DNA from: Escherichia coli
GTDB lineage: Bacteria; Pseudomonadota; Gammaproteobacteria; Enterobacterales; Enterobacteriaceae
Assembly (NCBI RefSeq): GCF_045037415.1
Contig: NZ_CP173438.1
Length of the DNA stretch: 64,000 nucleotides
Reading direction: 5' to 3' (one strand)
Shown here: positions 1,536 to 55,527 of the stretch, piece after piece
Layout: each line of letters begins with the position of its first letter
Numbering within the stretch: the first letter of the stretch is position 1
Notes under the pieces: generated by a model
Told to the model about the DNA's origin: nothing
Databases searched by the model: none
The model's input: the letters and a program-made list of their open reading frames with translations, nothing else
Program-made: the position numbers and the translations under genes

Positions 1536-1584
1536 GAACAGCGCCATGGCTGATCGGGCCACCGCTGAATGTTAACCAAGGAGA

Positions 1585-2583
1585 GTGTTTATGAAACCTC
1601 ATATGAAACGTGGCCTGACAAAAGTCGCGCTGGCACTGATGCTGGCTGGATACTGTGCCGTACCAGTCGCTATGGCGGAAGATGCTGCCTGGGTCGCCAG
1701 TGGAACGACAGCTGAATTCGAGGGGACCATACCCTGGCTCTATCGCGAAGGGGGGAATGCTACGATTAACTCGGAAGATGCGGATCACATCAAAGTGACA
1801 TCTGATAGTAAAGGTATCCGTCCTGCAGGTAGCGAGTCTGATAAACGCCTTTACTCAGGGGATACCATCACGCTGGGTTGGGATATCGGCGATACCGAAG
1901 GGGATATCGATGATGGTTCCGCAGGCATTGATGCGAAAACGACGGCGACCATCAAATGGTACAGCTACAGTGATAATGCGGGTGGCGGTAAAACGGAGTT
2001 GACTGCGGCGGCAGGAAAAACCAGTTATAAAATCACCGATGGCGATCGTGGACGCTATATCGGTGTTGAAATCCAGCCTATCACTCAGACCGGTAATCCC
2101 TTCCAGGGAACTTCGCTGACTCTGCTGGATATTTCTACGGCCAGCGGTGGCGGCAGCGATACGGATAATGTCGATCCTGGTCCGGTTGTTAACCAGAACC
2201 TGAAAGTTGCCATCTTCGAGAAAGACACCAGTACCAACCTTATCGGTGGTAATACAGCCATTGCGCTTAACAAAACGTATGTGGCCAAACTGTACTCGGA
2301 TGAAAACCAGAACGGTAAATACGACGCGGGTACGGATGTGGACGTTACCGCTAACTACGACTTTGCGTGGGTCTTTAACGGTAACAGTAAACAACTTGCG
2401 GCGGCGGGCGGTATTGCCAACGCCAGCTTCGATAACAATGACATTGTTATTCCGCAAACTAACGAACAAGCAAGAACCAGCCTTAACGGTAGTGACCGTA
2501 ATGGTAAGACCGGCCTTGCAATCCCGGCAAACGGCGACGGCGTTCAGGGCTATACGCTGTCTATCATTTACAAACACCACTAA
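1585..2583 (+). CDS. sinI: SinI-like secreted protein (332 aa) with signal peptide
   Basis: RBS aaggagag upstream; N-terminal signal peptide (MKRGLTKVALALMLAGYCAVPVAMA); C-terminal about 100 aa homologous to the C-terminus of the preceding intimin-like protein (..NGNxxxAxAN..DIxIPxTN..DGVQGYxL..Y). Confidence 0.6.
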   Translation: MFMKPHMKRGLTKVALALMLAGYCAVPVAMAEDAAWVASGTTAEFEGTIPWLYREGGNATINSEDADHIKVTSDSKGIRPAGSESDKRLYSGDTITLGWDIGDTEGDIDDGSAGIDAKTTATIKWYSYSDNAGGGKTELTAAAGKTSYKITDGDRGRYIGVEIQPITQTGNPFQGTSLTLLDISTASGGGSDTDNVDPGPVVNQNLKVAIFEKDTSTNLIGGNTAIALNKTYVAKLYSDENQNGKYDAGTDVDVTANYDFAWVFNGNSKQLAAAGGIANASFDNNDIVIPQTNEQARTSLNGSDRNGKTGLAIPANGDGVQGYTLSIIYKHH

Positions 2584-2590
2584 TGCGCAC

Positions 2591-2621
2591 AACAGCATTC
2601 CCGTATGGGAATGCTGTTTTC
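2591..2621 (+). terminator. Rho-independent terminator after sinI-like gene
   Basis: Hairpin acagcattccc-gtat-gggaatgctgt followed by TTTT. Confidence 0.6.
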
Positions 2622-2692
2622 CGCCTGTTTTGCTTAGCGACGCGTTAAGCAAAACGGGTTGACGTTTTGTTTATCATGCTGGAGTTTTCTAC

Positions 2693-5600: not shown

Positions 5601-8600
5601 TCACGATAGCGCTGAACGATGGCGCACAAACTATTGGCGGCGATACGCCGGTTTACGTCAGTTGCCTGAAGACGGCGAACAAACCTGCCAGCAGCATTAC
5701 GCTGGAGGTGGTTGATAAAGCGCAATGGAATACCGGGAATAGCGCGGCAACGCTGAAAAAAGGCGAGACGCTACAGGTTAAAGTGACGGTAAAAGACGCA
5801 CAGGGCAACGCGTTAGCGGATATGCCATTTACCCTCAATCGCGGTGATGGCTATACCCGTAGCGGCGAAAAACATGTGGCGGGCAGCGGCGATGCGCTGG
5901 TTGCGCCGGTGGTAGTCAATGGCGGGCTGGCAGATGAAACCACGTTGAACGACACTGCAACGGTGTATACCGCCATGACCGACAATGACGGCAGCAAAAT
6001 TCTCAATATTACCCGCCCGGATACTCACGGCACCAAAACGGCGCTGACGGCAATGCTTTACTCTGATGCGACGAAAAAATCCAGCATCGACACAATCTTT
6101 ACGGTGGTGACCAGCCCGGATAGCCGCCTGGCAAAAATGTGGGGACATATGCCGGAAACGGTGACTGCTGCGGACGGTACGGTATTTAAGCGCCCGCTGT
6201 TGTTGAAGGAACTGGCCTATCAGACTGGGCGAACATCAACGTCTGAAGACAATGAAAACTGGGCGTTGTTTAACATTAATTATGCAAGTTTTTCCACGAC
6301 GTACAGCGGCTGTGGAACCAACTATATTCCGACTCAGGCCGGTCTGACGTCACTGTTTGCTAATAATGCGGGCAACACCATGAAAACCGTGCAGGGCTGG
6401 CCGGTGGCAACGCGCTATTTATCCAACACTTCCGACAACGGCAGCATGGAGCAGCGTAACTACAAGGCGGTAGATCTCAGCAATGGCACGAGTGCGGCAG
6501 TGTCATCAACGACGCTGGAGCTGCTGACCTGCCAGACCGCGCCGATAGCCGCGGTGAGCCAAATCCTGCTGGAAGCGGCAGATCCGGTGACGCTGGATAC
6601 CACCTATAACGTGGTAAAAGCGAAAAAAAGCGAAGAATCCGTGGTGCGCGTCATCACCAAAGATGCGCAAGGCAACCTTGTGGGCAATACGGCATTTATC
6701 CTGACGCGAGCCAACAGTGTAAGTCGGGCTAATTCATCGGCGACGATGAGTGTGGGCGCGCTGACGGTGACGGATGCGTGGGGAAATACGCGAAATAATT
6801 TCCAGTCAACGAGTGAAACCATTTACGGCGTGACCGGTGCCGACGGGTCAACGACATTTACCCTAAAACAGGATAACAGTACCGGGTTAAGAACCGATCT
6901 CACGGCAAAACTGGATACGTCCAGCAGCGTCAAGGCGATGCTACCGGTGGTCTTTACCGTCGTGACCAGCCCGGATTCGCCAAAAGCGAATTTTTGGGGA
7001 CATATGGCCGAAACGGTGACGGCCTCCGATGGTTCGGTTTATAAGCGACCGTTGCTGTTTGGCGAGCTTACCAACAACTATGCACGATATAGCACGTTTG
7101 AGAACGGTGAAAGTTGGGCAAGATTCACCTCGACTCAGTCGGCTGACACCAGCATGAATGGGTGTGGTACAGATTATATGCCAACGCTGGATGGTCTGAA
7201 GTCTTTGTATGACGCCAATAGAGGTAATGCGATGAATACGGTACAGGGATGGCCGGTAAATATGAGTTATCTCACCAATACCCCGAGTAATACACAAACA
7301 GGGAGCCGTTACTACAATGTGGTGCAACTAAATTCTGGCGCAGTTTCGCAAATCGTATCCACCGTGCTGGCGTTACAAACCTGCCGTACAACGCCGTTGA
7401 TGACTGCCAGCCAGATTACGCTGGAAGCCTCAGACCCCGGGCAGTTTGTCAGCATTGACAGCACACTTAGCGCCGTCAAAGCGAAGAAGGGGGATGAGGT
7501 GTCGATCCGCATTTCGACTAAAGATGCGCAGGGGAATTTAGTCGGCAATACGCCGTTTGCCCTGAAACACGCGAACTCGATCAATCGTCAGAATGTGACG
7601 TCATCGCAGAAAGTGTCAGTCACGACTGCGGCGGGTGCGACGGTGGATACCAGTGCAACGACCATCCTGTATGGTGTAACAGGGCCAGATGGAACCACTA
7701 CGATGACGCTCCGACAGGATGCTTCCACTGGGTTAAGAACCGACTTTTATGCTCTATTAAACGATACTGGCGTGTCGTCGGACACCTTGTCGGTGATCTT
7801 TACCGTCACCACCAGCCCGGATACGCCGCTGGCGACCAATTGGGGCCATATGGCGGAAACCTTTACCAGCAGCGAAGGCGTCACCTTCAAACGGCCTTTC
7901 CTCAAAGCCGAACTCTCTGGCGGTACGGCGAAAACGGCCAATAATGAAGTCTGGTCGCTCCTGACCGCGACTGAGAAAGCGGACGTCAGCAAGGCTGGGT
8001 GTGATGAGGCGTATCAACCGCTGACGACTGATATGCAGGGGCTGTATGTCGATTATCCCAATGGTCAACTGGCAACGGTGCTCGGCTTGCCGACTGCTGC
8101 AGGGAACTGGTGGGATTATGACATGATGGCGGTAGCGGGCGGTAGCTGGAGTAACCAGGCGTTTGTTCCGGGAAATGGTCAGTTGATTCAGGCATCGTCC
8201 AGCTATACGGCGATAGTGATGTGTTTGGTAGAGCCTCATACGGAAGCAGTCACAATAGAGCTTACCTCAACGGCGCAGGATGCAGCAAAATCGCTCAGCA
8301 ATGATGGACGACCGAGCGCTGTAGCGAAGAAAGGTGAGCTGATTCCGTTGACGGTGACCGTGCGTGATAGCGCCGGGAACCCGATGCCATATGCCGACTT
8401 TACCCTTTCGCGTGAAACGACGCTGGATCGCGCGAAAGCAACCGTTAACACGAGTGCAGACGATCTTACCGTAACGGCATTGGTTCCGGTGAGTAGGGAT
8501 AGCGTGTTGACAGCAAGTGGAGCAAAAACTCTCGCAACGACGGGCAGTGATGGCACAGCCACCTTTGAGGTTGGGCAGTACTCTACTACCGGGTTGGCGA

Positions 8601-10774
8601 CGCCGTTAACCGTGACGCTGGCGCGTGATACAACGAAAGTCGCCACGCTGGATGTTATCTACACGGTGATTACCAGCCCAGATTCACCGAGTGCTAAATT
8701 CTGGGGGCATATGCCGGACACCTTTACCAGTTCGGCGGGCGTCACCTTCAAACGACCCCTGCTGAAAACCGAAACCAGCTCAGGCTTATCGATTAGTTCT
8801 AACGGCGAAGTTTGGTCGTATATGAGCAACTTGCAAAATTTAACATCTACAGATTGCCCACTCGAGAATCAACCGCGCAGTAAGGAACTGTTGGATTTGT
8901 ATAGTGATCATCCGAACGGCGCAATAATGACTGACCTTGGGTTACCGATGAATGCGGGTAACTGGTGGGCTTATGATATGGCCATACTGGGTACAACAAC
9001 GTGGTCTTATCAGACTGTCAGCCTGAGAACAGGAGCTATCGCGAAGAATTCTGCAACCAACGCACTGATGCTCTGTCTGGCGCAGCCGCATCCGGCAGGC
9101 GTTAGCGTAACATTGACGTCATCCGCACTGGATGACGCCAGAACCCTCAGCAATGGCGGCCGACCTAGCGCGTCAGTGAAAAAAGATAACCCATTGCCAA
9201 TTGTGGTTATGGTCAAAGATCGTGATGGCAACCCGCTGGCGGGCGAAGCGATAACGCTCAGGCGTGATAATGCGATGAGCCGCTCAGGAACCATTGTAAA
9301 CACGGCAGCAAATGTGATGGTATTGACGGAACTGGCACCCGTGTCGGCAACATTCACTCTCGCCTCACACGGCACGCAATGGCTTGGTTTTACCGGCAGC
9401 GATGGTACGGCGATATTCAATGTTGAACAGCCTGATACTGTCGGCCTGGCAACACCGTTTACCGCCATCCTGGCACGTGATACGGAAACCACCACTGTCC
9501 TTGATGCGATCTTCACCGTTGTCACCAGCCCTGATTCCGCAATGGCGGCCTACTGGGGTCATATGCCGGATACGGTAACGGCAGAAAACGGTGTGGTCTT
9601 TGAAAGACCTAAATTGTGGAAAGAGCTGCCGTCGACATCAGGGGTTAGCAAGGTCAATAGTAACAATGAAGTCTGGCCCGTGTTTAACGCAACGCAGAGG
9701 GCTGACAGCAATCTCAGCCCTTGTGAAGCGGCACGTCGGCCATTGAGTGATGATTTAGAATCGCTCTATGCTCGCTATCCGGGGAACACGCTGACGACAC
9801 AAATCGGTTGGTCTACGCAGTATACATGGTGGGCGCTGGATAACTGGCTGGGAGGCAGTAATCCGCAGGTAGTCGGTCTGAATAATGGTTCAGCGTGGGG
9901 GACGGTGAATACCGCGTATCAAGGGTGCCTGGTTAACCCGCGTGCGACTGTCTCCAGCGTCACGTTGACATCGACGGCACTGGATAGCAGTACGCAGGCG
10001 GCGAAGGTGAAAAAAGGCGACGCCGTTCCCGTTGTCGTTACCGTGAAAGACAGTGTCGGGAAACCAGTGCCGAATATTTCGTTTATCCTCAAACGTGGTG
10101 ACGCTACGCCGCGTAATAGCGGGGCGACGTTGTATGGCGATGTGGATACAATGGACGATTTGACTGTACAACCCTCATCCGGTGCGGCAGTCACGTTGGC
10201 TGATAGCGGGAATACAATCGATGGAGTTACTGGAGCAGACGGTACAGCAAGTTTTACCGTTGGTCAGGATAATACGCCAGGATATAAAACGCCGTTGACG
10301 GTGACGCTGACGGATAACGCCACAATAACGGCGACGCTGGACACGATTTTCACCGTGCCGACCAGTCCTAATGTCGCCACGGCGTATTTCTGGGGTCATA
10401 TGGCGGATACCGCCACGGTAAGTGGCAAGATGCTGCATCGCCCGCTATTAAAATCGGAGTTGCCGTCAGGGGTTACCGCAGCAGCAACGCCCAATGTGAA
10501 TAATGAAACCTGGGCGCTGGCACATGTTATAGATTCCACTAAATGGGATGTCGCACGGCAGTGCGGTAGTATGAATAACGTGCCGAGCAGTGCCGAATTA
10601 CAAACATTACACTCCGGCTTTAGCACATTGGGATGGCCGTCATCGATAAGCTTCCCGTATTTATCTACTGATAAGGCTGGATCGTTCTATTGTGGTGTTG
10701 AGGAAGGCTCTGGCAGTCTCAACTGTGGCATTCAGCCTGCGAAAACGCCGGGGTTTGCAACCTGTTTCCAATAA
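2693..10774 (+). CDS. ratA: Giant repetitive Ig-like-domain surface protein (2693 aa), RatA-like
   Basis: Signal peptide at N-terminus; about nine tandem repeats of roughly 280 aa, each ending in a conserved FTVxTSPD..A..WGHM(A/P)(E/D)T motif; adjacent to xseA as in CS54-type islands. Confidence 0.65.
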
Positions 10775-10808
10775 CCTTGCCCACCCTATCAATATGAGGT
10801 TCCGAAAG

Positions 10809-12225
<1,417 letters not shown>

Positions 12226-13891: not shown

Positions 13892-15469
13892 ATGACGGAA
13901 AACATTCATAAGCATCGCATCCTCATTCTGGACTTCGGTTCCCAGTATACTCAACTGGTTGCGCGCCGCGTGCGTGAACTGGGGGTTTACTGCGAACTGT
14001 GGGCGTGGGATGTGACAGAAGCACAAATTCGTGACTTCAATCCAAGCGGCATTATTCTTTCCGGCGGCCCGGAAAGTACTACTGAAGAAAACAGCCCGCG
14101 TGCGCCGCAGTATGTCTTTGAAGCAGGCGTACCGGTATTCGGCGTTTGCTATGGTATGCAGACCATGGCGATGCAGTTGGGCGGTCACGTTGAGGCTTCT
14201 AATGAACGTGAATTTGGCTACGCGCAGGTTGAAGTCGTAAACGACAGCGCACTGGTTCGCGGTATCGAAGATGCTCTGACCGCAGATGGTAAACCGCTGC
14301 TGGACGTCTGGATGAGCCACGGCGATAAAGTTACCGCTATCCCGTCCGACTTCGTCACCGTAGCCAGCACCGAAAGCTGCCCGTTTGCCATCATGGCCAA
14401 CGAAGAAAAACGCTTCTATGGCGTACAGTTCCACCCGGAAGTGACTCACACCCGCCAGGGTATGCGCATGCTGGAGCGTTTTGTGCGTGATATCTGCCAG
14501 TGTGAAGCCCTGTGGACGCCAGCGAAAATTATCGACGACGCTGTAGCCCGCATCCGCGAGCAGGTAGGCGACGATAAAGTCATCCTCGGCCTCTCTGGTG
14601 GCGTGGATTCCTCCGTAACCGCAATGCTGTTGCACCGCGCTATCGGTAAAAACCTGACTTGCGTATTCGTCGACAACGGCCTGCTGCGTCTCAACGAAGC
14701 AGAGCAGGTTCTGGATATGTTTGGCGATCACTTTGGTCTGAACATTGTTCACGTACCGGCAGAAGATCGCTTCTTGTCAGCGCTGGCTGGCGAAAACGAT
14801 CCGGAAGCAAAACGTAAAATCATCGGGCGCGTTTTCGTTGAAGTATTCGATGAAGAAGCGCTGAAACTGGAAGACGTGAAGTGGCTGGCGCAGGGCACCA
14901 TCTACCCTGACGTTATCGAATCTGCTGCTTCTGCAACCGGTAAAGCACACGTCATCAAATCTCACCACAACGTGGGTGGGCTGCCGAAAGAGATGAAGAT
15001 GGGCCTGGTTGAACCGCTGAAAGAGCTGTTCAAAGACGAAGTGCGTAAGATTGGTCTGGAGCTGGGCCTGCCGTATGACATGTTGTACCGTCACCCGTTC
15101 CCGGGACCAGGCCTTGGCGTTCGTGTTCTGGGGGAAGTGAAGAAAGAGTATTGTGACCTGCTGCGCCGTGCTGACGCCATCTTCATTGAAGAACTGCGTA
15201 AAGCGGACCTGTACGACAAAGTCAGCCAGGCGTTCACCGTCTTCCTGCCAGTACGTTCCGTTGGCGTAATGGGCGATGGTCGTAAGTATGACTGGGTTGT
15301 CTCTCTGCGTGCTGTCGAAACCATCGACTTTATGACCGCACACTGGGCACATCTGCCGTACGATTTCCTCGGTCGAGTTTCCAACCGCATTATCAATGAA
15401 GTGAATGGTATTTCCCGCGTGGTGTATGACATCAGCGGCAAGCCACCAGCAACTATTGAGTGGGAATGA
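13892..15469 (+). CDS. guaA: GMP synthase (glutamine-hydrolysing)
   Basis: 525-aa protein [36 protein letters not shown]..; glutamine amidotransferase plus ATP-pyrophosphatase (SGGVDSSV) domains. The last codons (IEWE-stop) lie within the prophage att core. Confidence 0.95.
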
Positions 15470-15471
15470 TT
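15455..15471. repeat. attL core (17-bp direct repeat) overlapping guaA stop codon
   Basis: Identical 17-mer at 55459-55475. Confidence 0.8.
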
Positions 15472-15517
15472 AACAGCTAACTCATAGCAACTCATTCCTA
15501 TTCAGATACTAATTTAA

Positions 15518-15546
15518 CCCTCTGTTTTTACAGAGGGTTTTTGTTT
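15518..15546 (+). terminator. Rho-independent terminator downstream of guaA (phage-supplied copy)
   Basis: ccctctg-ttttta-cagaggg plus T-run; near-identical hairpin with a different loop at 55502-55527. Confidence 0.7.
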
Positions 15547-15604
15547 TTATGTATTCATTTCTATTCACTCTACACCATATTTTTCGTCGGTACAGGTGAC
15601 GGTA

Positions 15605-15619
15605 TTACCTTAAAGGTAT
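15605..15619. promoter_or_regulatory. Imperfect copy of prophage palindromic motif (TTACC-TTAAA-GGTAT) upstream of int
   Basis: One mismatch to TTACC-N5-GGTAA; 43 bp upstream of int start. Confidence 0.4.
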
Positions 15620-15661
15620 ACTCTCATACCGTCATGAAAATGGTTTCTATACGGGTGAATT

Positions 15662-16918
15662 GTGCTTACCGATACAAAATTAAAAAACCTCAAGCCGCAG
15701 GACAAACTGTACAAGGTCTCCGATCGTGACGGGCTGTATGTAGCTGTGCTTACGTCAGGCACGGTCTCGTTTCGCTATGACTACCGTATCAACGGTCGCC
15801 GCGAAACACTGGTAATCGGGCAGTATGGGCGTGACGGTATCAGCCTGGCAGAAGCGCGAGAAGAACTGATTGCTGCAAAGAAGCTGCTTAAAGCAGGCCA
15901 GTCACCGGCTGCGGCTAAACGTGACGGTATTAAAAAGATTCGTGGTGCCGAGACGTTTGCGGTACATACCGACAGTTATATGAAACACGTCATCCTGGCT
16001 GACAGTACCCGCGCAATGAAGCAGGCGGTGATCGACCGTGACATACTTCCGGTTCTTGGCAACAAAATGATGGCTGAAATTACCACATCAATGGTTCGTG
16101 ATTTGTGTGACCGGATTGTCGAACGCGGTGGTCGGGCAACAGCAGTACAGGCCAGGGAGATCATCAGCAGCGTATACCGTCACGCCAATGACCGTGGTCA
16201 TGGTTTGTTTAATCCTGCGGCTGACATTAAACCTTCGTCTATCGCCATATTTAAACCACGAGAGCGAACACTGACACCAGAAGAAATTGGCCTGTTCTTC
16301 CGCACGCTGGATGCCATTGGTGCTATGGGCACTATGAAAATGGCTTTAAAGCTGGTGCTTATCACCATGGTTCGTAAGGGAGAATTCACCAATGCAACGT
16401 GGGATGAAATAGATTTTAAAAAATGGACATGGACAATTCCTTCAGACCGCATGAAGGGAAGTCGGGCGCACGTTATTTACCTGCCTAAACAGGCACAGGA
16501 TATATTAGTCGGGTTGCAGATGTGCGCTGGTGGAAGTGAATATCTGGTTCCTGGTCGTTACAATTTCCGGAAGCCATTATCTAATGCCGCGCTGAACTCT
16601 CTGATCGACAGAACGGTGAAAATAATAAATGAAGATGGTGAGCATATTCAGGATTTTACTGTACATGATATGCGCCGTACAGCCAGTACATTGTTGCATG
16701 AGGCTGGTTATCCTTCAGACTGGATTGAAAAGGCTCTGGCACACGAGCAGAAAGGTGTGCGCGCCGTATATAACAAAGCGGAATACGCCAGACAGCGCGC
16801 CTACATGTTGCAGCAGTGGGCCGATATGATTGATTCCTGGATTAACGGGGAGCATACGGATCTGATTCCGTTCTCCCCGTCGAAGTTTGAGAAGTGGATG
16901 GAAGACAGTAATAAATAA
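15662..16918 (+). CDS. int: Tyrosine integrase (P4-type N-terminal arm-binding domain)
   Basis: GTG start; MLTDTKLKNLKPQDKLYKVSDRDGLYVAV.. typical of P4-like integrases; C-terminal catalytic region with HxxR and terminal Tyr; adjacent to attL. Confidence 0.9.
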   Translation: MLTDTKLKNLKPQDKLYKVSDRDGLYVAVLTSGTVSFRYDYRINGRRETLVIGQYGRDGISLAEAREELIAAKKLLKAGQSPAAAKRDGIKKIRGAETFAVHTDSYMKHVILADSTRAMKQAVIDRDILPVLGNKMMAEITTSMVRDLCDRIVERGGRATAVQAREIISSVYRHANDRGHGLFNPAADIKPSSIAIFKPRERTLTPEEIGLFFRTLDAIGAMGTMKMALKLVLITMVRKGEFTNATWDEIDFKKWTWTIPSDRMKGSRAHVIYLPKQAQDILVGLQMCAGGSEYLVPGRYNFRKPLSNAALNSLIDRTVKIINEDGEHIQDFTVHDMRRTASTLLHEAGYPSDWIEKALAHEQKGVRAVYNKAEYARQRAYMLQQWADMIDSWINGEHTDLIPFSPSKFEKWMEDSNK

Positions 16919-16920
16919 TT

Positions 16921-17580
16921 CTATCCTTCCTGGACTTTGGTAAGCGTCAGATTTCCGCAGAACACTGCGCCGGTGTCGATGTACATTTGGTTTGCATACA
17001 CCAGTGGGTGATGTGCTGGCGTATGACCGAAGATGAACAAATCGGCACCGGTTATCTCCGAGACAATACCGTCCTGCGCGTCGCTAACCCGCTCACGATT
17101 CCATATCACCATTTCTTCCGGTACTGGCTTATCGAATGCGTATTCGTTGTGCGGGTAGTCTGCGTGGCAGATGACGACCTTCTTATTGCCGGTAACCAGT
17201 TCGATAATCATCGGGAGGTTGGTAACCTTTGGCAGAAGGTATTTGAGTTGCACATCCTGCTCAGAATCAAGTTGGTGCCACCATCCACCGCCGTTTGACA
17301 TCCAATGTCCGAAACTTCCGCCGTTGACCAGTGCATCCAGCATCATCTGCTCATGGTTGCCACGAACAGCTCGGAACCACGGCATAGTAATCAAATCCAG
17401 GCATTCGACGTTTTCAGCGCCGCGGTCAACAAGGTCACCAACGGAAATAAGCAAATCGCGCGCCGGGTCGAATGAAACTTTGTCGAGTTCGTTCATCAGC
17501 AGCGTGTAGCACCCATGCAGATCGCCGACGACGAAGATATTGCACCAGTCAGCGCCATTGATGCGTTGATATAGGTTCAT
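16921..17580 (-). CDS. Ser/Thr protein phosphatase (lambda PPase / PrpA-like metallophosphatase)
   Basis: GDLHG, GDLVDRG and GNHE metallophosphatase motifs; start taken at MNLYQRING to avoid overlap with the upstream gene. Confidence 0.8.
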
Positions 17581-18239
17581 GCTGCACGCTCCCGCCCCTG
17601 GTTGTCTGTTGGTGACAGCGGAGCATTGCTGAATGCATTTGTTAATCCGCCGATATCCAACGCGTATCCAGGGTGTAGTTGCACTGCCGGGTCTTCGCAC
17701 TGATTACCCCAAACATCGAAGCCATGAGACGTCTGGCGGGCGAACAGTTCAATGCGAGAAACATCGCCTAATAATTGCACAAGTTTTTCACGAACGATAT
17801 CTGGCTTTCTTGAATGCTCAAGCCGCGGTGCGGTAAATGACTGAACGATCCCTGCATTAATGCGCGTAGGTAGTTTTCCCTTTACCGCAAACAGGCAATC
17901 TTCACTATTGGCGCGAGTCATGTGTCCCATACCCATAACCAGTTTATCTGGTTGTCGACTACCACATTTTATCCACGTGAAGCCCTTCATCGTCATCAGA
18001 CGGAATCCCCAGGCTTCAACAACTTTTAGTGCTTCGAGTGGTTGTGTTGGCACCCACCACATGGCCAACAGACAGTTTTCATCGGCCAAATCCCACACAG
18101 GAAGGCGGCAGATATCCAGCACACTCATAACCGGATATTTAAAACCGGCACCGCGATTACCATCTGCGGCTTTGTCCCGGTATACCCAGGGTGGATCTGC
18201 ATAGATTAGTGTGTATTTCTTAGTCATAAACCACCCCAC
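17577..18239 (-). CDS. DNA N6-adenine methyltransferase (MT-A70-like)
   Basis: DPPW motif (..[12 protein letters not shown]..) near the N-terminus; overlaps the phosphatase start by 4 nt. Confidence 0.75.
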
Positions 18240-18486
18240 AACATCCTATGCCGCTATAGTCGCCACGGCGAAGGCCGTTACCTTTTGTGATACATTGGTC
18301 CCTGCGAACCGCGATCCTTGCACGTTCAACATCACCAGAAGCAACATCCATACACTGAAGCCAAAGGTGAGCGGCAATGCGGAATTGCCCTTTTTTCTCT
18401 CTTTCAATCGCGCGTTTTTCGATCTCTATCGCCGCAGGAGTAACGGCGACAATCTTTGACGGACTGCGCATTGAAACCTTATTCAT
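18220..18486 (-). CDS. Small hypothetical prophage protein (possibly ANR-type regulator)
   Basis: ORF only; start uncertain (M at 18519, 18486 or 18471). Confidence 0.3.
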   Translation of the reverse strand: MNKVSMRSPSKIVAVTPAAIEIEKRAIEREKKGQFRIAAHLWLQCMDVASGDVERARIAVRRDQCITKGNGLRRGDYSGIGCCGVVYD

Positions 18487-18628
18487 GTGATATTTTTCAA
18501 GTCGGCTTAACTTTCTCACTTAATCCAACCCTCTCTGAAAATTAATGCCAGCAGATAAAGCCATGCTGAAACAGAGGCCAGGAATAAGTACCATCCTGAC
18601 CATTTGCTCCAGTGCCTTAGCAGCGCAC

Positions 18629-18877
18629 TCATGCAGCGTTGCTCACGGGACGATATACACGTTGCTGAACAGGAGGCTTTTTACCCTGGAACTCTGCCGG
18701 GCTTGCTGCCTGACGTTCATCAAGCCAACGCTCAACTTCATCACGGTTCCATGCGCAGCGTTTATCGGTGATATACCAGCGTTTAGGAAATTCCCCTGCG
18801 CGCTCCATACGGTCGATAGTGCTCCATGACAGTGGCACCACCGCCAGGAGTTCTTTCTTACCTAATGCACCTTTCAT
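18629..18877 (-). CDS. AlpA-family phage regulatory protein / excisionase-like HTH
   Basis: 82 aa; ..LSWSTIDRMERAGEFPKRWYITDKRCAWNRDEVERWL.. resembles AlpA/Xis-type winged helix; located in the int-proximal early operon. Confidence 0.6.
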   Translation of the reverse strand: MKGALGKKELLAVVPLSWSTIDRMERAGEFPKRWYITDKRCAWNRDEVERWLDERQAASPAEFQGKKPPVQQRVYRPVSNAA

Positions 18878-18926
18878 GAATACCTCTCTTGGTTGCAGTG
18901 CGGCGCACGTGGCGCCGCGGTGGTGG

Positions 18927-19868
18927 TTACATAGATGTTTCGTTTAATTCTTCCCGACGAACGCTGTAAACGTCGGTTGCTTTTGCCAGCAGTTCGTCAT
19001 CATCTGAAAGTTTTTGTGCAATGTATTTGTAAGCCTTATCCAGTTCGGAGACAGTGCTGTAATTCATCGCTGCGCTGGTAAAGGCCATCAGCATTTCTTC
19101 TGGATCACGGCTGTCCGATTTACGCGTTTGCTCATCAGGCTTTTTCGCTGGTTTAGCGTTGATCAGACTGTTCATTCCCGCAGCAGTGGTCGTTTGCGGA
19201 GTAATGTCTCGCTCAACGCGCGGTGCCGTTTCCTGTAATTCGTCTGGGGTGTAGACGCCCATGATTACGTCAGGACAGTGCAGGCGAGACCAGCGTTTTG
19301 TCGCAAGGTATGCGAGTTGTTGTTTCGGATCACTGGCCCAAAGTGTGGAGTTTCTTACCTGTGCTTGAGACAGCATTAACTCAAGCACTCGAGGTTGATC
19401 CTCGCCCTTCATGGTTGCCCATACGCGAACACCGCAGCCTTCTTCGTCTTTTAGAGTCCAGCCTGGTGCGATATATGGATTGCCGTTTTTGGATGTTTTC
19501 TCAACAAACTTACCGATCACGCGTTCCCACGGCCCGAACCACTCGTAGTTGATGCGATCTTTTGTTGGCGACATCGTTGAGATAACTGCGTTTACTAATT
19601 GGGCTTCATAACCTAGCGTGCCGTTCACAACATGGGTTTTCTGAGCCACGGCAAACGGGTTCATTCCCCACTGCGCAGCCTGCATTGCCACGGCCATGCA
19701 ATCAGCTGGTTTCCCGGCGAGGTGCGCCGGTACCGTTACGCGGCTTTGCGCCATTACCTCGGCGAATTTCATCAGTTGGTTCAAGCCGTCTGGGCTGAAA
19801 ATAGTTGCAGCAGTTCCAGCGATTGCTGTGTCTACTGGTGCGTTGATGTTTGCGATGTCGTTGCTCAT
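18927..19868 (-). CDS. RecT-family single-strand annealing recombinase
   Basis: RecT-like sequence; start at MSNDIANI overlapping the stop of the upstream exonuclease gene. Confidence 0.75.
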   Translation of the reverse strand: MSNDIANINAPVDTAIAGTAATIFSPDGLNQLMKFAEVMAQSRVTVPAHLAGKPADCMAVAMQAAQWGMNPFAVAQKTHVVNGTLGYEAQLVNAVISTMSPTKDRINYEWFGPWERVIGKFVEKTSKNGNPYIAPGWTLKDEEGCGVRVWATMKGEDQPRVLELMLSQAQVRNSTLWASDPKQQLAYLATKRWSRLHCPDVIMGVYTPDELQETAPRVERDITPQTTTAAGMNSLINAKPAKKPDEQTRKSDSRDPEEMLMAFTSAAMNYSTVSELDKAYKYIAQKLSDDDELLAKATDVYSVRREELNETSM

Positions 19869-20686
19869 ATGTACATATCCTGTTTGCGTGCCCACTCAGG
19901 GCGTTTAATGATTTCCACACCGCCCCATTCATCATTGATGCGGCATTCGTGATAGGTATTCAGATCCCGGCGGAACAGAGCGTGCCCGGCATCGACATCC
20001 TGCGCATCCAGCTCGAACACGCGTACCGGATACCGACCACAATCAATGCTTTCGCTCACGGCAAGAAAGAAAAAACCATGCGGCTGACCAGTAACCCTCA
20101 TTGCGCCTTCGCGGTACATTGCGTCCTGCACGTGGTAGCGGAATTCCTCGATGTGGCGTGCAAAACGGTCCATATCTGCAACCTTTTTCACGTCGACGAT
20201 CACGTTGTGCTCGTTCAGCCATTTGTCTGGACGAATTCGGCACAACTCCCCCGTCTCTTCATCGTTCCAGTACATTGATGCTTCGCAGTAACCAGGTGCT
20301 TCCAGCATCCAGCGTGCCGCCGGGTGAGCCATTGCGCTATCACGCATCAGCTCCAGTTTCCGCCACTGCTCGGCATCAAGTACCGTAATCCCCATATCCG
20401 CCACATCACGAAGAAATTCCTCTTCGTCAGCTTTACCTTGTTTCGTCCGACGATCGAATTTCGGTGAAACAATGAAGCGTTTGTCGAACTCTCCAGGCTC
20501 CAGAAGCAGACAGTGCAATGCGGTTCCCATATCCAGTGCAGACTTTTTCTCTTCGTCTTCTGGTGCTGCCTGAACCCATTTAAGAAGCGCCGGATTCTTG
20601 GCAACCATGTCCAGTTGCGACTTACTCACGCCGTCACCGGCGTGGTAGTCTTCGTTGCTGATGTCGAAATAAATTCCCGGTTTCAT
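19865..20686 (-). CDS. PD-(D/E)XK exonuclease (phage recombination exonuclease, YqaJ/RecE-like)
   Basis: 273 aa immediately upstream of RecT in the same operon; conserved D..E.K-type nuclease signature region (..VIVDVKKV..). Confidence 0.6.
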   Translation of the reverse strand: MKPGIYFDISNEDYHAGDGVSKSQLDMVAKNPALLKWVQAAPEDEEKKSALDMGTALHCLLLEPGEFDKRFIVSPKFDRRTKQGKADEEEFLRDVADMGITVLDAEQWRKLELMRDSAMAHPAARWMLEAPGYCEASMYWNDEETGELCRIRPDKWLNEHNVIVDVKKVADMDRFARHIEEFRYHVQDAMYREGAMRVTGQPHGFFFLAVSESIDCGRYPVRVFELDAQDVDAGHALFRRDLNTYHECRINDEWGGVEIIKRPEWARKQDMYI

Positions 20687-20982
20687 GCCGCGTCCCTCTG
20701 CCCATCAAGCTGATCAGCCAGATCCCAGCGGGCGATAATTGCCATTGCCTCGCGCCGGTAGGCATCCATTAGTTCTTCGAACTCAGGGCTGTCTTTAGCG
20801 GCCTCCAGTACTTCCTGGCGAACGCCTTTAACTGTTACAACGTCGAAAGTTGATGCCAGTTGATGAAGCCGGATACTCTCAATCAGTTCAACTTGTCGGT
20901 CATATAGCTGTTCTGACAGACGGTAGTCCTTGTCGAATGCCAGCATGATTTTTTGAAGATTTTTCTGCTGATTAACGTTCAT
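20683..20982 (-). CDS. Hypothetical early-left protein
   Basis: ORF MNVNQQKNLQKIMLAF..; tightly coupled to flanking genes. Confidence 0.4.
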   Translation of the reverse strand: MNVNQQKNLQKIMLAFDKDYRLSEQLYDRQVELIESIRLHQLASTFDVVTVKGVRQEVLEAAKDSPEFEELMDAYRREAMAIIARWDLADQLDGQRDAA

Positions 20983-20984
20983 TA

Positions 20985-21137
20985 TCAGCCCTCCCATATC
21001 TCGTTATCGTTGGCCACATCGCGAGCTTCTTTGCTGACGAAAGCCCACTTAATGCCTTCCTGTAAGGTGCGGAACTTCCAGCTCATGAATCCGCATGCAG
21101 TAACGCAGTACCAACCGTTGATGATTTTCCACTGCAT
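20985..21137 (-). CDS. Small hypothetical protein (50 aa), first gene of the leftward early operon
   Basis: Translated by hand: MQWKIINGWYCVTACGFMSWKFRTLQEGIKWAFVSKEARDVANDNEIWEG; SD gaggt 9 nt upstream; below ORF-track size cutoff. Confidence 0.4.
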   Translation of the reverse strand: MQWKIINGWYCVTACGFMSWKFRTLQEGIKWAFVSKEARDVANDNEIWEG

Positions 21138-21156
21138 AACTTGTTACCTCGGTCTG

Positions 21157-21171
21157 TTACCGTTGAGGTAA
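21157..21171. promoter_or_regulatory. Palindromic operator-like motif TTACC-GTTGA-GGTAA at the leftward early promoter
   Basis: Perfect copy; abuts a -10-like element of a minus-strand promoter whose -35 TTGACA is at 21194-21199. Confidence 0.6.
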
Positions 21172-21218
21172 TAATTATGCGTATATGGTTTGATGTCAAT
21201 AGATATGAGTTAAAAAAA

Positions 21219-21233
21219 TTACCCGTTAGGTAA
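21219..21233. promoter_or_regulatory. Palindromic operator-like motif TTACC-CGTTA-GGTAA
   Basis: Perfect copy 62 bp from the copy at 21157; paired arrangement. Confidence 0.6.
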
Positions 21234-21244
21234 TCGAATAGGCA

Positions 21245-21270
21245 ATAAAAAAGCCGCCATAAGGCGGCTT
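21245..21270 (-). terminator. Rho-independent terminator after repressor gene
   Basis: On minus strand aagccgcc-ttat-ggcggctt followed by TTTTTT. Confidence 0.6.
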
Positions 21271-21290
21271 ACTTACTGAAAAATATGGTT

Positions 21291-21875
21291 TTATTGTTTG
21301 TTTTTTTCGTTCTGGTTGATGACAAATTCAATGTAACTTTCGATCTTTGCTTTCTCGGTTTCGGGTAACAATGCGTAGCGTGAGCGGTCATAGTTGATAG
21401 TCGCAGGGTCGTGCGGGTGAATCAGTAGTTCATATCCGTGACGCCCGAATGCGGATGCAACATTCTCCAGGGTGGAAATGGAAACGCTGACCTCATTGTT
21501 TAACAGGCGGCTGATTGTCACCTGGGCGACGCCGGATGCGCGGTGAAGTTTTCCCTGAGTTGAAAGGTCGCGGCTTTCACTCATCCAGCGTTCCAGGTTG
21601 TGAGCTGCCAGCTGACCAATGTCGCTTGGGCCGACAGGCTGAAAACCTTCCTGAGAAAGCGAGCGATCGATATCAAGCCAGTTACGGGGTTTATTGGCGG
21701 CAGCTTCAATTTTTCGCGCAACCTGGTCGCCGATAACCTTCTTGCCAAGAGCCCAGCGGTTTACCAGATTTGCCTGAGTTCCAAGTTTTTCTGCCATCCG
21801 CGTCTGAACACCATTGAATTCACGGTCGATCAAGTCGTTGAGATTTTGCCTGCGGACGTCCTGGATACTTTTCAT
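21291..21875 (-). CDS. Prophage repressor-like regulator with two HTH modules and no peptidase S24 domain
   Basis: 194 aa; two HTH-like segments (..TRMAEKLGTQANLVNRW.. and ..ASGVAQVTISRLLNNE..); divergent from the Cro-like gene; no Ser/Lys autocleavage domain. Confidence 0.6.
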   Translation of the reverse strand: MKSIQDVRRQNLNDLIDREFNGVQTRMAEKLGTQANLVNRWALGKKVIGDQVARKIEAAANKPRNWLDIDRSLSQEGFQPVGPSDIGQLAAHNLERWMSESRDLSTQGKLHRASGVAQVTISRLLNNEVSVSISTLENVASAFGRHGYELLIHPHDPATINYDRSRYALLPETEKAKIESYIEFVINQNEKNKQ

Positions 21876-21930
21876 TTTCTGGAAAATCGCCTCATATATG
21901 AATCAGTAGATGATTCAATTTAAAGCAATA

Positions 21931-21945
21931 TTACCCAACAGGTAA
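21931..21945. promoter_or_regulatory. Palindromic operator-like motif TTACC-CAACA-GGTAA in the repressor/cro intergenic region
   Basis: Perfect copy. Confidence 0.6.
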
Positions 21946-21951
21946 ATGCAC

Positions 21952-21990
21952 CCCATAGGTAACTATCCTTGATTTTTGTTACCTTATGGG
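21952..21990. promoter_or_regulatory. Second inverted repeat in the immunity region (cccataggtaac-N14-gttaccttatggg) overlapping the putative rightward promoter -35
   Basis: Half-sites GGTAAC/GTTACC in outward orientation; candidate rightward promoter -35 TTGTTA 21976-21981 and -10 TATTAT 21999-22004. Confidence 0.45.
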
Positions 21991-22029
21991 TGAATATTTA
22001 TTATCTGAAATAAATATCAGGCAATAGCT

Positions 22030-22260
22030 ATGAGCGATAACGGACATTTCGATTTCAAAAAGCACTGGCTTGCACTTACTCCGGATGAGCGTGAAGCCTT
22101 CGCACAGGAAGCCGGAACGACGAGTCACTATATCCAGACTCACTTAACAGGTAAGCGCAAAATGCCAGGTAAGGTATTGATGAATGGGCTTTTTAAAGCA
22201 TGTAAAACAAGACAATGGCTGCGCTCAAAAGCGGAACTGGCATACTTCTTCTACTCATGA
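22030..22260 (+). CDS. Cro/CII-like small HTH regulator
   Basis: 76 aa, HTH-like ..EAGTTSHYIQTHLTGKRKMP..; divergent from repressor. Confidence 0.5.
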   Translation: MSDNGHFDFKKHWLALTPDEREAFAQEAGTTSHYIQTHLTGKRKMPGKVLMNGLFKACKTRQWLRSKAELAYFFYS

Positions 22261-22282
22261 TATCTGGCAACAACCCTCTGTA

Positions 22283-22304
22283 GACCGCCATCCGGCGGTC
22301 TTTT
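22283..22304 (+). terminator. Rho-independent terminator after cro-like gene (tR1-like)
   Basis: gaccgcc-atcc-ggcggtc followed by TTTT. Confidence 0.55.
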
Positions 22305-22315
22305 CATATCTATTC

Positions 22316-22330
22316 GTACCTCAAAGGTAA
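22316..22330. promoter_or_regulatory. Imperfect palindromic motif GTACC-TCAAA-GGTAA
   Basis: One mismatch to TTACC-N5-GGTAA; just downstream of the tR1-like terminator. Confidence 0.4.
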
Positions 22331-22410
22331 TAAAAAACCAAATCTGGTTGATCTTTTTTTTGTGTCAGCACAAAATAACCGTAATCCCAATACTAATAAC
22401 AGGGCTTACC

Positions 22411-22611
22411 ATGGAAATCATTACACGTATTGATGCCGCAAAGCGCGGACTTAAACGCTACTACACCGGAAAACCATGTAAGCACGGACATGACAGTGAA
22501 CGCTGGGTTTACAACGGACACTGTGTTGAGTGCACCATGGAGTCAAACCGTCGCATCAGGGCAGAGATTAAGCAGATCATGATTAATTCCTCCCCACAAC
22601 ATTCAAGCTGA
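22411..22611 (+). CDS. Small Cys/His-rich (zinc-finger-like) hypothetical protein
   Basis: MEIITRIDAAKRGLKRYYTGKPCKHGHDSERWVYNGHCVEC..; start chosen at ATG 22411. Confidence 0.4.
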   Translation: MEIITRIDAAKRGLKRYYTGKPCKHGHDSERWVYNGHCVECTMESNRRIRAEIKQIMINSSPQHSS

Positions 22612-22626
22612 TAGCGGAGATTAATC

Positions 22627-23442
22627 ATGAGCAGACATGCAACAGATTGGGCTTGGGAGACAGATCCAGGTAGCTCATCATTAAAGCTCATACTGCTCTC
22701 GATGGCTGACAGAGCCGATGAATATAACCTCTGCTACCCCAGCATAGAACGCCTCGTTAAAGACACTTGCCTGAATAAAAAAACCGTGCAGGCCGGGCTT
22801 ATATCGCTCATGAAAATGGGGATTATTTCAGATACCGGAGAGAGAAAGGGAGCGACAAAAAGAGTGCGGGTTTTCTCTCTTAATATAACCAAAAACGGGA
22901 ACATTAAAGGCAACCGGGAGGGGGGCAATGAACCCGAAAACGGGAATATACCCGAAAACGGGAATATACCCAAAAACGGGATGTTGAATGATCCCAAAAA
23001 CGGGATGTTGAATGATCCCAAAAACGGGATCCAGAACCAGTCATATAACCAGTCATTTAACCAAGAGAGGGAGAGCAGGACAAAAAGCGGGGATTCTGTG
23101 CCTCATGACCCCGGAGCAAACAACGCCGTGATGAATAACTTTGTTCCTCCTGGTGGGCCAGGGCAATTAGGCAAATTTGTCATGCATGAACAATGGCAGC
23201 CATCAGATGACTTTCTTCGGAAAAGCTCATTGCAGGGGATCTACCTGGACAGTCTGCCAACGGCACAGGAACTTGCAGAGTTCAGAATTTACTGGATGGC
23301 TGAGGGTAAGGCATACCATCAGGCACAGTGGGAGCAGAAGCTGGCAAGGCGGCTGCAGATTAGCAGACAGAAGCAATCAACATTACCTGATAACAACGTT
23401 CCGCACTGGAACAGCCCTGAAGCATGGGAGGATTTCTTGTGA
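22627..23442 (+). CDS. Replication initiator (O-like: N-terminal HTH, internal repeat linker)
   Basis: N-terminal HTH-type domain; in-frame tandem repeats in the middle (NGNIPENGNIPKNGMLNDPKNGMLNDPKNG); directly precedes the P-like helicase loader as lambda O precedes P. Confidence 0.6.
   Translation: MSRHATDWAWETDPGSSSLKLILLSMADRADEYNLCYPSIERLVKDTCLNKKTVQAGLISLMKMGIISDTGERKGATKRVRVFSLNITKNGNIKGNREGGNEPENGNIPENGNIPKNGMLNDPKNGMLNDPKNGIQNQSYNQSFNQERESRTKSGDSVPHDPGANNAVMNNFVPPGGPGQLGKFVMHEQWQPSDDFLRKSSLQGIYLDSLPTAQELAEFRIYWMAEGKAYHQAQWEQKLARRLQISRQKQSTLPDNNVPHWNSPEAWEDFL
22933..23032. repeat. Iteron-like tandem direct repeats inside the replication initiator gene (candidate phage origin)
   Basis: Five copies of the core CCC(G/A)AAAACGGGA: two 18-bp units (cccgaaaacgggaatata), two 24-bp units (cccaaaaacgggatgttgaatgat) and a partial fifth. 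Confidence 0.55.
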
Positions 23443-24224
23443 ACAACGTTTTTACCGCGATACAAAACCGTGACGGAGAAGCCCTTTCTCGCATGTCAGG
23501 TTATGAGCATCAGTACGTCAACAATGACAATGTGGTGAACATGTCAGCAGAGAGGCTTGTTGATGCCCTTTTTAAACAGCTGAAACAACTGTTTCCGGCG
23601 GCAGTGGTAACCAACCTGAAGACGCCAGAGCAGGAAGTTGCTGCAAAACAGCAGTGGATTGCTGCGTTTGCCGAAGGGGGGATCCGAACCCGTGAACAGG
23701 TTTCTGCTGGTATGCGCCACGCCCGCGCCAGTGAATCTCCGTTCTGGCCGTCTCCAGGGCAATTTATCAAGTGGTGCAAAGACAGCAAGATGGTTCTTGG
23801 CGTCACCATTGACGATGTGATGGCGGAGTTTCACCGGTACAGCAAGGAAAAAAGTTTATATCCTGGTGGTCCCGAAAGATTCCCGTGGCGACATCCGGTT
23901 ATGTACTGGGTCGTATGTGATACCCGCCGTGCAATGTATCAGCGCCAGCTTAGCGAGATTGAGGTTGAGAAACACGCACGCAGGCTGCTCGATGATTGGG
24001 CGAAAAAGGTGGCTTCCGGACAGCAGATACCCGATCCGGTGATCAGCATACAGGCAAAGCCAGAGCCCATGAGTACGCCTCCGGACACAGGGAGAGACGT
24101 TTACCATCCACCAGGGCGAAGTTTCGGGTGCATGCCTAACGCCGCCACCCTTGGGGGAATAACACCGGCGCAGTGGCTGATGGAGGAATACAGGCGGGGA
24201 AAGGCGGCAGGATTTATCAAGTAA
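23424..24224 (+). CDS. Replication protein P-like (DnaB helicase loader)
   Basis: Clear similarity to lambda P central region as recalled (..QWIAAFAEGGIRTREQVSAGMRHARASESPFWPSPGQFIKWCKD.. versus lambda ..QWVLAFRENGITTMEQVNAGMRVARRQNRPFLPSPGQFVAWCRE..). Exact start uncertain (23424 or GTG 23439). Confidence 0.8.
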   Translation: MGGFLVNNVFTAIQNRDGEALSRMSGYEHQYVNNDNVVNMSAERLVDALFKQLKQLFPAAVVTNLKTPEQEVAAKQQWIAAFAEGGIRTREQVSAGMRHARASESPFWPSPGQFIKWCKDSKMVLGVTIDDVMAEFHRYSKEKSLYPGGPERFPWRHPVMYWVVCDTRRAMYQRQLSEIEVEKHARRLLDDWAKKVASGQQIPDPVISIQAKPEPMSTPPDTGRDVYHPPGRSFGCMPNAATLGGITPAQWLMEEYRRGKAAGFIK

Positions 24225-31219: not shown

Positions 31220-31296
31220 CTGGCGTGGCATGCAGGATTCGAACCTGCGACCAACCGCTTAGAAGGCGGTTGCTCTGTCCAACTGAGCTAATGCCA
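31220..31296 (-). tRNA. tRNA-Arg (anticodon UCU), phage-encoded
   Basis: Folded by hand: acceptor GTGGCAT/ATGCCAC, D-arm GCTC..GAGC, anticodon stem ACCGC/GCGGT with loop CTTCTAA (anticodon TCT), T-arm GCAGG-TTCGAAT-CCTGC, discriminator G and encoded CCA. Confidence 0.85.
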
Positions 31297-31619
31297 CAAC
31301 GCTGAGAGCACTTAGCCTGTTAAGGCGCCACACTTTGTCGCGGCTCCATAAATGCTCTCATCGTTGTACCCTCGTCTCTTCCGAGGCGTCACACCGAATC
31401 GCCGGGATGGTGAATCCCCGTGCGCGGAATAAAACCGCTCGACTTGCACATTCCGGCTACCTGGTTCGTTTGCCCGAGCAAGGGAGGGTGCCCCTTAAAC
31501 GTATCCAGACCGCTATCGGCGCATGTGCCATACGCCGTACTGCTCAAAATAAAAGCTCACTCCACCTGTTCAATTTAACGACAATCCAGTCAGGTTAGTA
31601 ACCGGAATGAACTCTTTGG

Positions 31620-55475: not shown

Positions 55476-55501
55476 TGACCCTGCACTATGAATGAACAAA
55501 A

Positions 55502-55527
55502 CCCTCTGTTACTACAGAGGGTTTTTT
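55502..55527 (+). terminator. Rho-independent terminator (native guaA terminator displaced to attR)
   Basis: ccctctg-ttacta-cagaggg plus TTTTTT. Confidence 0.65.

Follow-up and report, generated by a model that had tools for sequence, protein, structure and literature searches.

A NinI-type protein phosphatase gene and an orphan MT-A70 adenine methyltransferase gene next to the integrase gene of a phiV10-like prophage in Escherichia coli

Introduction

A phiV10-like (Uetakevirus) prophage of about 40 kb in a 64,000-nucleotide stretch of an Escherichia coli genome (RefSeq assembly GCF_045037415.1, contig NZ_CP173438.1; the whole stretch is called the window, and coordinates refer to it) carries two overlapping genes beside its integrase gene int, which encode a protein phosphatase and an adenine methyltransferase of the MT-A70 family. 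The phosphatase is related to NinI of phage lambda (Nin221, PDB 1G5B), which has the same length and aligns with it from residues 1-217 to 1-217 without a gap (E = 6.7e-100), and to Ppp of phage phi80 (78.5% amino acid identity). Lambda ninI is non-essential; in the literature on the biological role of NinI we found this non-essentiality and no paper naming a target. In lambda and phi80 the gene belongs to the nin region, where NinE lies on one side of it and NinG/Rap on the other, upstream of Q; the phosphatase gene described here, in contrast, closes the early-left operon and abuts int.

The methyltransferase is 98% identical, C-terminal tail included, to gp33 of phage phiV10, a 'putative adenine methylase', and phiV10 shares with the prophage the gene order AlpA, small membrane open reading frame (ORF), PerC, methyltransferase as well as the guaA-side integrase. 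The order int, phosphatase, methyltransferase is identical in phage vB_EcoP_PAS61 (PAS61), which covers 100% of window positions 16800-18950 with 98.4% identity. Similar to the protein described here, gp5 of Stx2a phages (M.EcoPA8orf6770P) is an MT-A70 enzyme with a DPPW motif that is encoded near int at the early-left end, the Stx enzyme being followed by DUF1382. Gong et al. (PMC10810198) reported that M.EcoPA8orf6770P alone has almost no in vitro activity on DNA or RNA and binds the 76-amino-acid protein PNB-2, encoded upstream, in a 1:1 ratio, that the C-terminal tail of the type found in Shiga toxin-producing E. coli (STEC; last ca. 27 amino acids) is proposed to be necessary for the holoenzyme, and that the intact gene raises spontaneous prophage induction and killing of amoebae. 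The same authors place M.EcoGV of E. coli O104:H4 in this lineage as a near-identical protein; it is listed as GATC-specific and is reported to have methylated GATC in vivo on over-production (PMC10810198; Forde et al. PMC6602927). Unlike M.EcoPA8orf6770P, the methyltransferase studied here is encoded without a PNB-2 gene, has an unrelated tail and is preceded by a PerC-like gene.

Both proteins are already named in RefSeq and their arrangement is already published in PAS61. We compared the locus with related phages and genomes, and conclude, with a probability of about 0.6, that the two accessory genes are independent of each other and close the early-left operon of a phiV10-like prophage, distal to its promoter, the methyltransferase most likely being Dam-like.

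The pairing of phosphatase and methyltransferase genes

An earlier note on this DNA had presented the two genes as a pair; as a unit, this pairing dissolves on comparison with other genomes. Among 5,426 complete E. coli genomes, searched for module matches at >= 95% identity, 537 carry the module of PerC and methyltransferase, with the PerC-like gene linked to the methyltransferase in 513 of them. The junction of int, phosphatase and methyltransferase is present in 142 of the 537. Carriers without the phosphatase junction make up ca. 74%, and those sampled are annotated as MT-A70, DUF1382 and integrase. In phiV10 a DUF1382 protein of 64 amino acids occupies the phosphatase slot and is joined to the methyltransferase by the same ATGA, and DUF1382 also follows the methyltransferase in Stx2a phages. 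The comparison shows the methyltransferase, as judged from gene order and overlapping codons, to be a conserved resident of the operon which is translationally coupled to the upstream PerC-like gene.

The borders of the exchanged segment can be read from the alignments. Most phage relatives, phiV10 among them, match 16800-18950 in two pieces which cover 69% of it. Identity to phiV10 takes in the methyltransferase stop codon and the two initial codons of the gene that follows (ATGAAC), is lost there and resumes in the last codons of int, where the integrase C-terminus reads ...EKWMEDSNK here and ...EKWMAGE in phiV10; by alignment, the last int codons are part of the swapped cassette. These comparisons show, at the level of sequence, that a NinI phosphatase replaced DUF1382 in a minority sub-lineage, with the swap junctions at gene boundaries.

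The NinI genes of lambdoid phages normally have another location. In DNA, the closest phosphatase genes of other phages, those of phi80 and HK225, are only 79% identical, and both are placed between ninE and rap of the nin region; protein identity to the closest other NinI genes is 60-80%, and those examined have nin-region locations as well. Homologs of NinI occur in 1,456 phage records, among which a near-identical copy (>= 99%) is restricted to PAS61 and BP9. In these two phages the copy adjoins the methyltransferase gene, whereas the lambdoid copies examined are located in nin regions without a methyltransferase; the phosphatase gene of the window is not in a nin region (between replication genes and Q). 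Because the junction occurs in 142 of 537 carriers only, the slot is otherwise taken by DUF1382, the junctions coincide with gene boundaries and the gene sits in nin regions elsewhere, the pairing is mosaic, with no functional link indicated. We see no indication that either enzyme acts on the other or that the two share a target.

The phosphatase

The maximal ORF of the phosphatase gene (16921..17700, minus strand) encodes 259 amino acids from a GTG, but the start at ATG 17580 (MNLYQRING...) is backed by the RefSeq and PAS61 annotation and by homologs, whose N-termini (MRYYEKIDG in lambda, MSMYQRING in phi80) fix the position. The identification as a Ser/Thr phosphatase in the earlier note is borne out by the gap-free alignment to 1G5B, by a Metallophos match (Pfam PF00149, residues 15-188, 58.9 bits against a cut-off of 21.5, 1.2e-15) and by PHROG 246 'NinI-like serine-threonine phosphatase' (9e-108). 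The motifs GDLHG, GDLVDRG and GNHE of the PPP family are present, and seven residues of 1G5B, D20, H22, D49, N75, H76, H139 and H186, which serve the lambda phosphatase as metal ligands and as general acid, are all kept. By homology, the protein is predicted to be a Mn2+-dependent enzyme acting on phospho-Ser/Thr/Tyr; it would remove phosphate from such residues in host (or phage) proteins in lytic growth and, like lambda NinI, would be dispensable.

The scores of the phosphatase are below the curated cut-offs of both NCBIfam equivalogs for the chromosomal E. coli proteins PrpA and PrpB (PRK11439, 266.1 against 326 bits; PRK09968, 221.5 against 332 bits). It is therefore classified as a phage NinI-type enzyme and an identity as PrpA/PrpB equivalog is ruled out. 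The phosphatase gave no match with the PADLOC defence models. The gene is intact and under purifying selection, with a ratio of nonsynonymous to synonymous substitution rates (dN/dS) of 0.06-0.13.

The methyltransferase

For the methyltransferase gene, too, the maximal ORF (17577..18239, minus strand, 220 amino acids from a GTG) is longer than the annotated one; the start at ATG 18227 (MTKKYTL...) is set by RefSeq and PAS61 annotation and by homologs. The adenine methyltransferase identity proposed earlier agrees with a match to the whole MT-A70 profile (Pfam PF05063, positions 1-172 of 172, 79.9 bits against a cut-off of 23.9, 2.8e-22), with PHROG 359 'DNA methyltransferase' (3e-120) and with the PADLOC model MTase_II (2.7e-77), the PADLOC matches being confined to methylase models. 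The segments D11-P12-P13-W14 and I159-E-L-F-A-R164...G174-N-Q176 are invariant in seven homologs and align to MTA1. The order of the motifs, with DPPW N-terminal and ELFAR...GNQ C-terminal, is that of the permuted beta class. With a dN/dS of 0.05-0.25 this gene is likewise intact and under purifying selection, and the substitution ratios indicate that phosphatase and methyltransferase are functional cargo and not decay products.

Among solved structures of MT-A70 chains, the catalytic domain is shared with ciliate MTA1 (PDB 7F4L/7F4R; 4.3e-13 for 7F4R) and METTL3 (6e-06), both distant relatives. The eukaryotic MT-A70 enzymes function as heteromers, have extra domains and rely on dedicated partner subunits (Gong et al. 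PMC10810198; a review), unlike the methyltransferase described here, which is a bare protein of 216 amino acids. An AlphaFold2 model built from the seven-sequence alignment had a mean predicted local distance difference test (pLDDT) score of 52, too poor for a fold search.

No restriction endonuclease gene is found beside the methyltransferase gene, the neighbors being the PerC-like regulator and the phosphatase. The enzyme is called an orphan for this reason, and a type II restriction-modification system is ruled out since a cognate endonuclease gene is not adjacent. M.EcoGII, an adenine methyltransferase from an E. coli prophage that is likewise an orphan and is reported to be silent in the lysogen, belongs to another family, with a DPPY motif and a central target-recognition domain; as a beta-class enzyme of 349 amino acids it is ruled out as a relative.

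Substrate and upstream neighbors of the methyltransferase

The methyltransferase is 83-84% identical to M.EcoPA8orf6770P over residues 1-187 and 81% overall, and the likeness includes the loops 85-100 and 119-133, which vary between sub-lineages. The comparison shows a common lineage in the MT-A70 group with phiV10 gp33 and M.EcoPA8orf6770P. The tail that follows residue ~187 is unrelated to the STEC-type sequence ...IVKFLEKTNERKNDVDKGITS; it comprises 36 residues and is common to phiV10 and Tyrion. Published evidence for the lineage conflicts, because M.EcoGV points to GATC in DNA and the complex of M.EcoPA8orf6770P with PNB-2 to 16S rRNA.

S-adenosylmethionine would serve the enzyme as methyl donor for the N6 position of adenine. 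By analogy with over-produced M.EcoGV the likeliest target would be DNA at GATC, so that a Dam-like DNA activity is considered most likely; this would top up the methylation of rapidly replicating phage DNA and protect it from nucleases that cut at unmethylated GATC. The statements of the earlier note on host signalling and on protection from restriction are generic. If the methyltransferase is GATC-specific, host Dam would probably mask it when the methylomes of a lysogen and a cured strain are compared. Such a comparison would probably be uninformative, because Dam would mask any methylation of GATC and the operon is likely to be silent in the lysogen.

The gene upstream of the methyltransferase varies among relatives. 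It is PerC in phiV10 and in the window, PNB-2 in Stx2a phages and DUF1317 in a Klebsiella phage. Salmonella phage SPC32H and E. coli CREC-36 have a gene for a 355-amino-acid DndB/DGQHR protein between PerC and MT-A70, overlapping the methyltransferase start, and in Enterobacter phage Tyrion a winged-helix (HTH_24/MarR-like) protein of 75 amino acids is encoded directly upstream of MT-A70 (1784-2011 of the compared stretch). The DndB/DGQHR gene of SPC32H and CREC-36 represents a different possible partner for the same methyltransferase. The winged-helix protein of Tyrion recalls, in description only, the predicted winged-helix PNB-2 of Stx phages. Co-variation of the methyltransferase tail with the upstream gene was not seen, as the phiV10-type tail is found beside PerC, DndB-like and winged-helix genes. 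Because the tail tracks no particular upstream neighbor, a role of PerC as replacement partner is unsupported. PNB-2 itself is not an obligate neighbor of the Stx-type methyltransferase, since Stx2a PNB-2-like genes have matches in ~1,000 complete E. coli genomes and are contiguous with the Stx-type methyltransferase in only 74 of these; most sampled matches of the query spanning PNB-2 and methyltransferase (2774-3627) cover only the PNB-2 part.

Operon structure and expression

The features of the locus are collected in Table 1. With the true starts, ATG 17580 and ATG 18227, the overlap of methyltransferase and phosphatase genes amounts to the four nucleotides ATGA, as compared to 124 nucleotides for the maximal ORFs; the overlap described in the earlier note is real, its extent is the smaller one. 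The end of the PerC-like gene overlaps the methyltransferase start by eight nucleotides (ATGACTAA). Together the genes form a chain of stop and start codons in the order AlpA-ATGA-38-amino-acid ORF-GTGA-PerC-ATGACTAA-methyltransferase-ATGA-phosphatase, in which each gene overlaps the next; the coupling of the 38-amino-acid ORF to PerC by GTGA holds for the 99-amino-acid reading of the latter. The genes for RecT and the PD-(D/E)XK exonuclease precede this chain in the same leftward operon. The PerC-like protein also weakly matches the ANR family. PerC homologs activate virulence loci in enteropathogenic and enterohaemorrhagic E. coli (EPEC and EHEC), which makes cross-talk of the PerC-like regulator with the host conceivable.

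A consensus scan found a sigma-70-like site, a candidate for the early-left promoter, downstream of a strong terminator-like hairpin that follows the repressor gene, and at the place equivalent to this hairpin phiV10 has an annotated terminator. For the minus strand from 21171 down to 16921, the same scan gave no terminator-like site. Both genes would be transcribed by read-through from the early-left promoter upon derepression of the prophage or upon infection, with translation coupled via the ATGA overlap; in the lysogen the early-left operon is expected to be repressed. The position assigned in the earlier note, at the distal end of a leftward early operon, is in line with the chain of overlaps, the lack of an internal terminator in the scan and the promoter-like consensus match, and the slot beside the integrase gene is indeed of the accessory kind, being filled by either phosphatase or DUF1382. 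The int gene (plus strand) and the phosphatase gene (minus strand) are convergent, with stop codons two nucleotides apart (16918-16921) and no terminator between them. Transcription from the early-left side would read antisense into int at these convergent genes.

Table 1. Positions of the features discussed, in window coordinates except for the last two rows
Feature	Position	Strand	Details
Putative attL core (guaA terminator hairpin)	15516-15542	+	27-nt direct repeat
Putative attR core	55500-55526		27-nt direct repeat, partner of the attL core at 15516-15542
P4-type tyrosine integrase	15662-16918	+	Pfam Arm-DNA-bind_3, Phage_int_M, Phage_integrase
NinI/lambda-type Ser/Thr(/Tyr) protein phosphatase	16921-17580	-	219 aa, ATG 17580, RefSeq WP_001055436.1
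Overlap of methyltransferase stop and phosphatase start	17577-17580	-	ATGA, from sequence reading
Orphan MT-A70 adenine methyltransferase	17577-18227	-	216 aa, ATG 18227, RefSeq WP_000163459.1
PerC-family small regulator	18220-18519	-	99 aa (GTG 18519) or 83 aa (ATG 18471); Pfam PerC 6e-07; PHROG 868 5.7e-62
Predicted membrane ORF (phiV10 p35 equivalent)	18516-18632	-	38 aa; overlaps AlpA (ATGA) and PerC (GTGA)
AlpA-type excisionase/regulator	18629-18877	-	Pfam Phage_AlpA 3.1e-05; PHROG 66 2e-16
RecT recombinase	18927-19895	-	Pfam RecT 2.2e-44; RefSeq
PD-(D/E)XK exonuclease	19865-20686	-	Pfam DUF3799 9.5e-23; RefSeq
Sigma-70-like promoter, candidate early-left promoter	21199-21171	-	TTGACA-17-AATTAT; consensus scan; downstream of the hairpin at 21270-21251
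Terminator-like hairpin after the repressor gene	21270-21251	-	Consensus scan; strong
DndB/DGQHR-domain gene, phage SPC32H	937-2004 of the compared stretch		
DndB/DGQHR-domain gene, E. coli CREC-36	3141-4208 of the compared stretch		

Weighing of the alternatives

Several points weigh against independent accessory genes with a Dam-like methyltransferase. The promoter and the terminator were called by consensus match alone, and the timing of expression is deduced from gene order. The tight ATGA coupling could in principle reflect a common function, though DUF1382 of phiV10 is coupled alike. The density of GATC is ordinary (3.5-3.7 per kb in the prophage, 3.0-3.3 in the host flanks), so that it carries no signal for or against GATC specificity. 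For the Stx-phage enzyme, the methyltransferase and PNB-2 are reportedly transcribed in lysogens near stationary phase; purified M.EcoPA8orf6770P alone was almost inactive on dam- DNA, which weakens the assignment to DNA and GATC, and its complex with PNB-2 preferred 16S rRNA and the 30S subunit in an assay of S-adenosylmethionine consumption (Gong et al. PMC10810198).

An enzyme of this lineage might accordingly be an RNA methyltransferase which, like M.EcoPA8orf6770P with PNB-2, modifies 16S rRNA in the 30S subunit and thereby tunes translation and spontaneous induction. The identity to the Stx2a-phage enzyme, the reported preference and the effect of that enzyme on induction speak for this, as does the occurrence of RNA m6A enzymes such as METTL3 among the closest solved relatives. 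However, homologs of PNB-2 or DUF1382 were not found elsewhere in the 64-kb window (best PNB-2 tblastn hit E = 0.37), and the PerC-like protein shows no similarity to PNB-2, which rules it out as a PNB-2 homolog; PNB-2 has no match in Pfam. Moreover, the C-terminal tail linked to PNB-2 is replaced by the unrelated tail of 36 amino acids, the modified rRNA base was left unmapped in the published work (PMC10810198), and the best PDB match belongs to the ciliate MTA1 family, which acts on DNA according to a review. We regard action on 16S rRNA as unlikely for the methyltransferase of this prophage, though as a live rival to the Dam-like reading.

A second alternative is that the genes serve lysogenic conversion and not lytic growth, the phosphatase rewiring stress signalling and the methyltransferase gene expression of the host. 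The location next to int is one typical of conversion genes, the gene directly upstream encodes a PerC-family regulator, and for the Stx methyltransferase a transcript in lysogens near stationary phase and an effect on virulence have been reported. The phosphatase furthermore resembles PrpA/PrpB to the extent of its PRK11439 score (266 bits); in E. coli, PrpA and PrpB act in stress signalling. Against this, the consensus scan gave no promoter-like site between RecT and the methyltransferase, and overlapping codons embed both genes in an operon that opens, downstream of the repressor gene, with genes for recombination. Conversion genes are an improbable explanation on these grounds.

The prospects are poorer still for a scheme in which the target of the MT-A70 enzyme is set by the small protein coupled upstream (PerC-like, the Tyrion winged-helix protein, PNB-2 or the DndB-like protein of SPC32H), the enzyme acting on RNA or specific DNA sites and forming, together with the phosphatase, a host-takeover module that tunes translation, phospho-signalling and induction frequency; we consider this very unlikely. 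A two-component system for defence, anti-defence or toxin-antidote function that requires both proteins is hardly credible, as the ATGA coupling and the conservation of the arrangement (98-100% identity) across 142 genomes of E. coli as well as PAS61 and BP9 are set against the ca. 74% of methyltransferase-module genomes without the phosphatase junction, the sampled ones with DUF1382 coupled alike, the restriction of near-identical copies beside a methyltransferase to PAS61 and BP9 among 1,456 phage NinI records and the lack of a PADLOC defence match for the phosphatase.

Prophage and chromosomal context

The prophage sits at the guaA terminator in the E. coli chromosome. The two direct repeats listed in Table 1 are 93% identical and spaced 39,984 bp apart, which gives the ends of a prophage of about 40 kb; the pair looks like the attL and attR cores, and the prophage is apparently complete. 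Its relatives are podoviruses of the phiV10 type. Since the repeat contains the hairpin of the rho-independent guaA terminator, integration regenerates this terminator. Positions 15400-18950 of the window are 100% identical to E. coli Ecol_AZ146 and several further genomes. In Ecol_AZ146 the RefSeq order is guaA, integrase, Ser/Thr phosphatase, MT-A70, PerC, helix-turn-helix regulator, RecT and PD-(D/E)XK nuclease, and beyond the nuclease a repressor-like helix-turn-helix protein, replication genes, terminase, portal and capsid are annotated.

Additional features were seen elsewhere in the prophage and in the flanking host DNA. Five iteron-like repeats of 24 nucleotides (GAATATACCCAAAAACGGGA...), spaced 18-63 bp, occur at 22881-23033 within a DnaT/O-like replication gene (~22627-23442), and are probably the phage replication origin. 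The prophage also contains a gene for tRNA-Arg (anticodon TCT; 31221-31297, minus strand), with terminase on one side and portal on the other. An Rfam scan of 15000-23500 yielded no structured RNA at E <= 0.1. In the host part of the window (~1-11000), upstream of xseA-guaBA, are sinH, whose product is an inverse autotransporter resembling intimin, sinI and an adhesion-domain gene of 8 kb, the names being taken from the RefSeq annotation of an identical genome.

Implications

The locus presents a clean case in which one gene in an accessory slot of a phage has been exchanged for another by a cassette swap at ORF boundaries, NinI taking the place of DUF1382 with the ATGA coupling kept. An enzyme closely related to the Stx-phage MT-A70 enzyme (~83% core identity) is encoded in about 10% of the complete E. 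coli genomes. The methyltransferase described here, encoded without the proposed specificity subunit, offers a natural test for DNA methylation by the catalytic subunit on its own.

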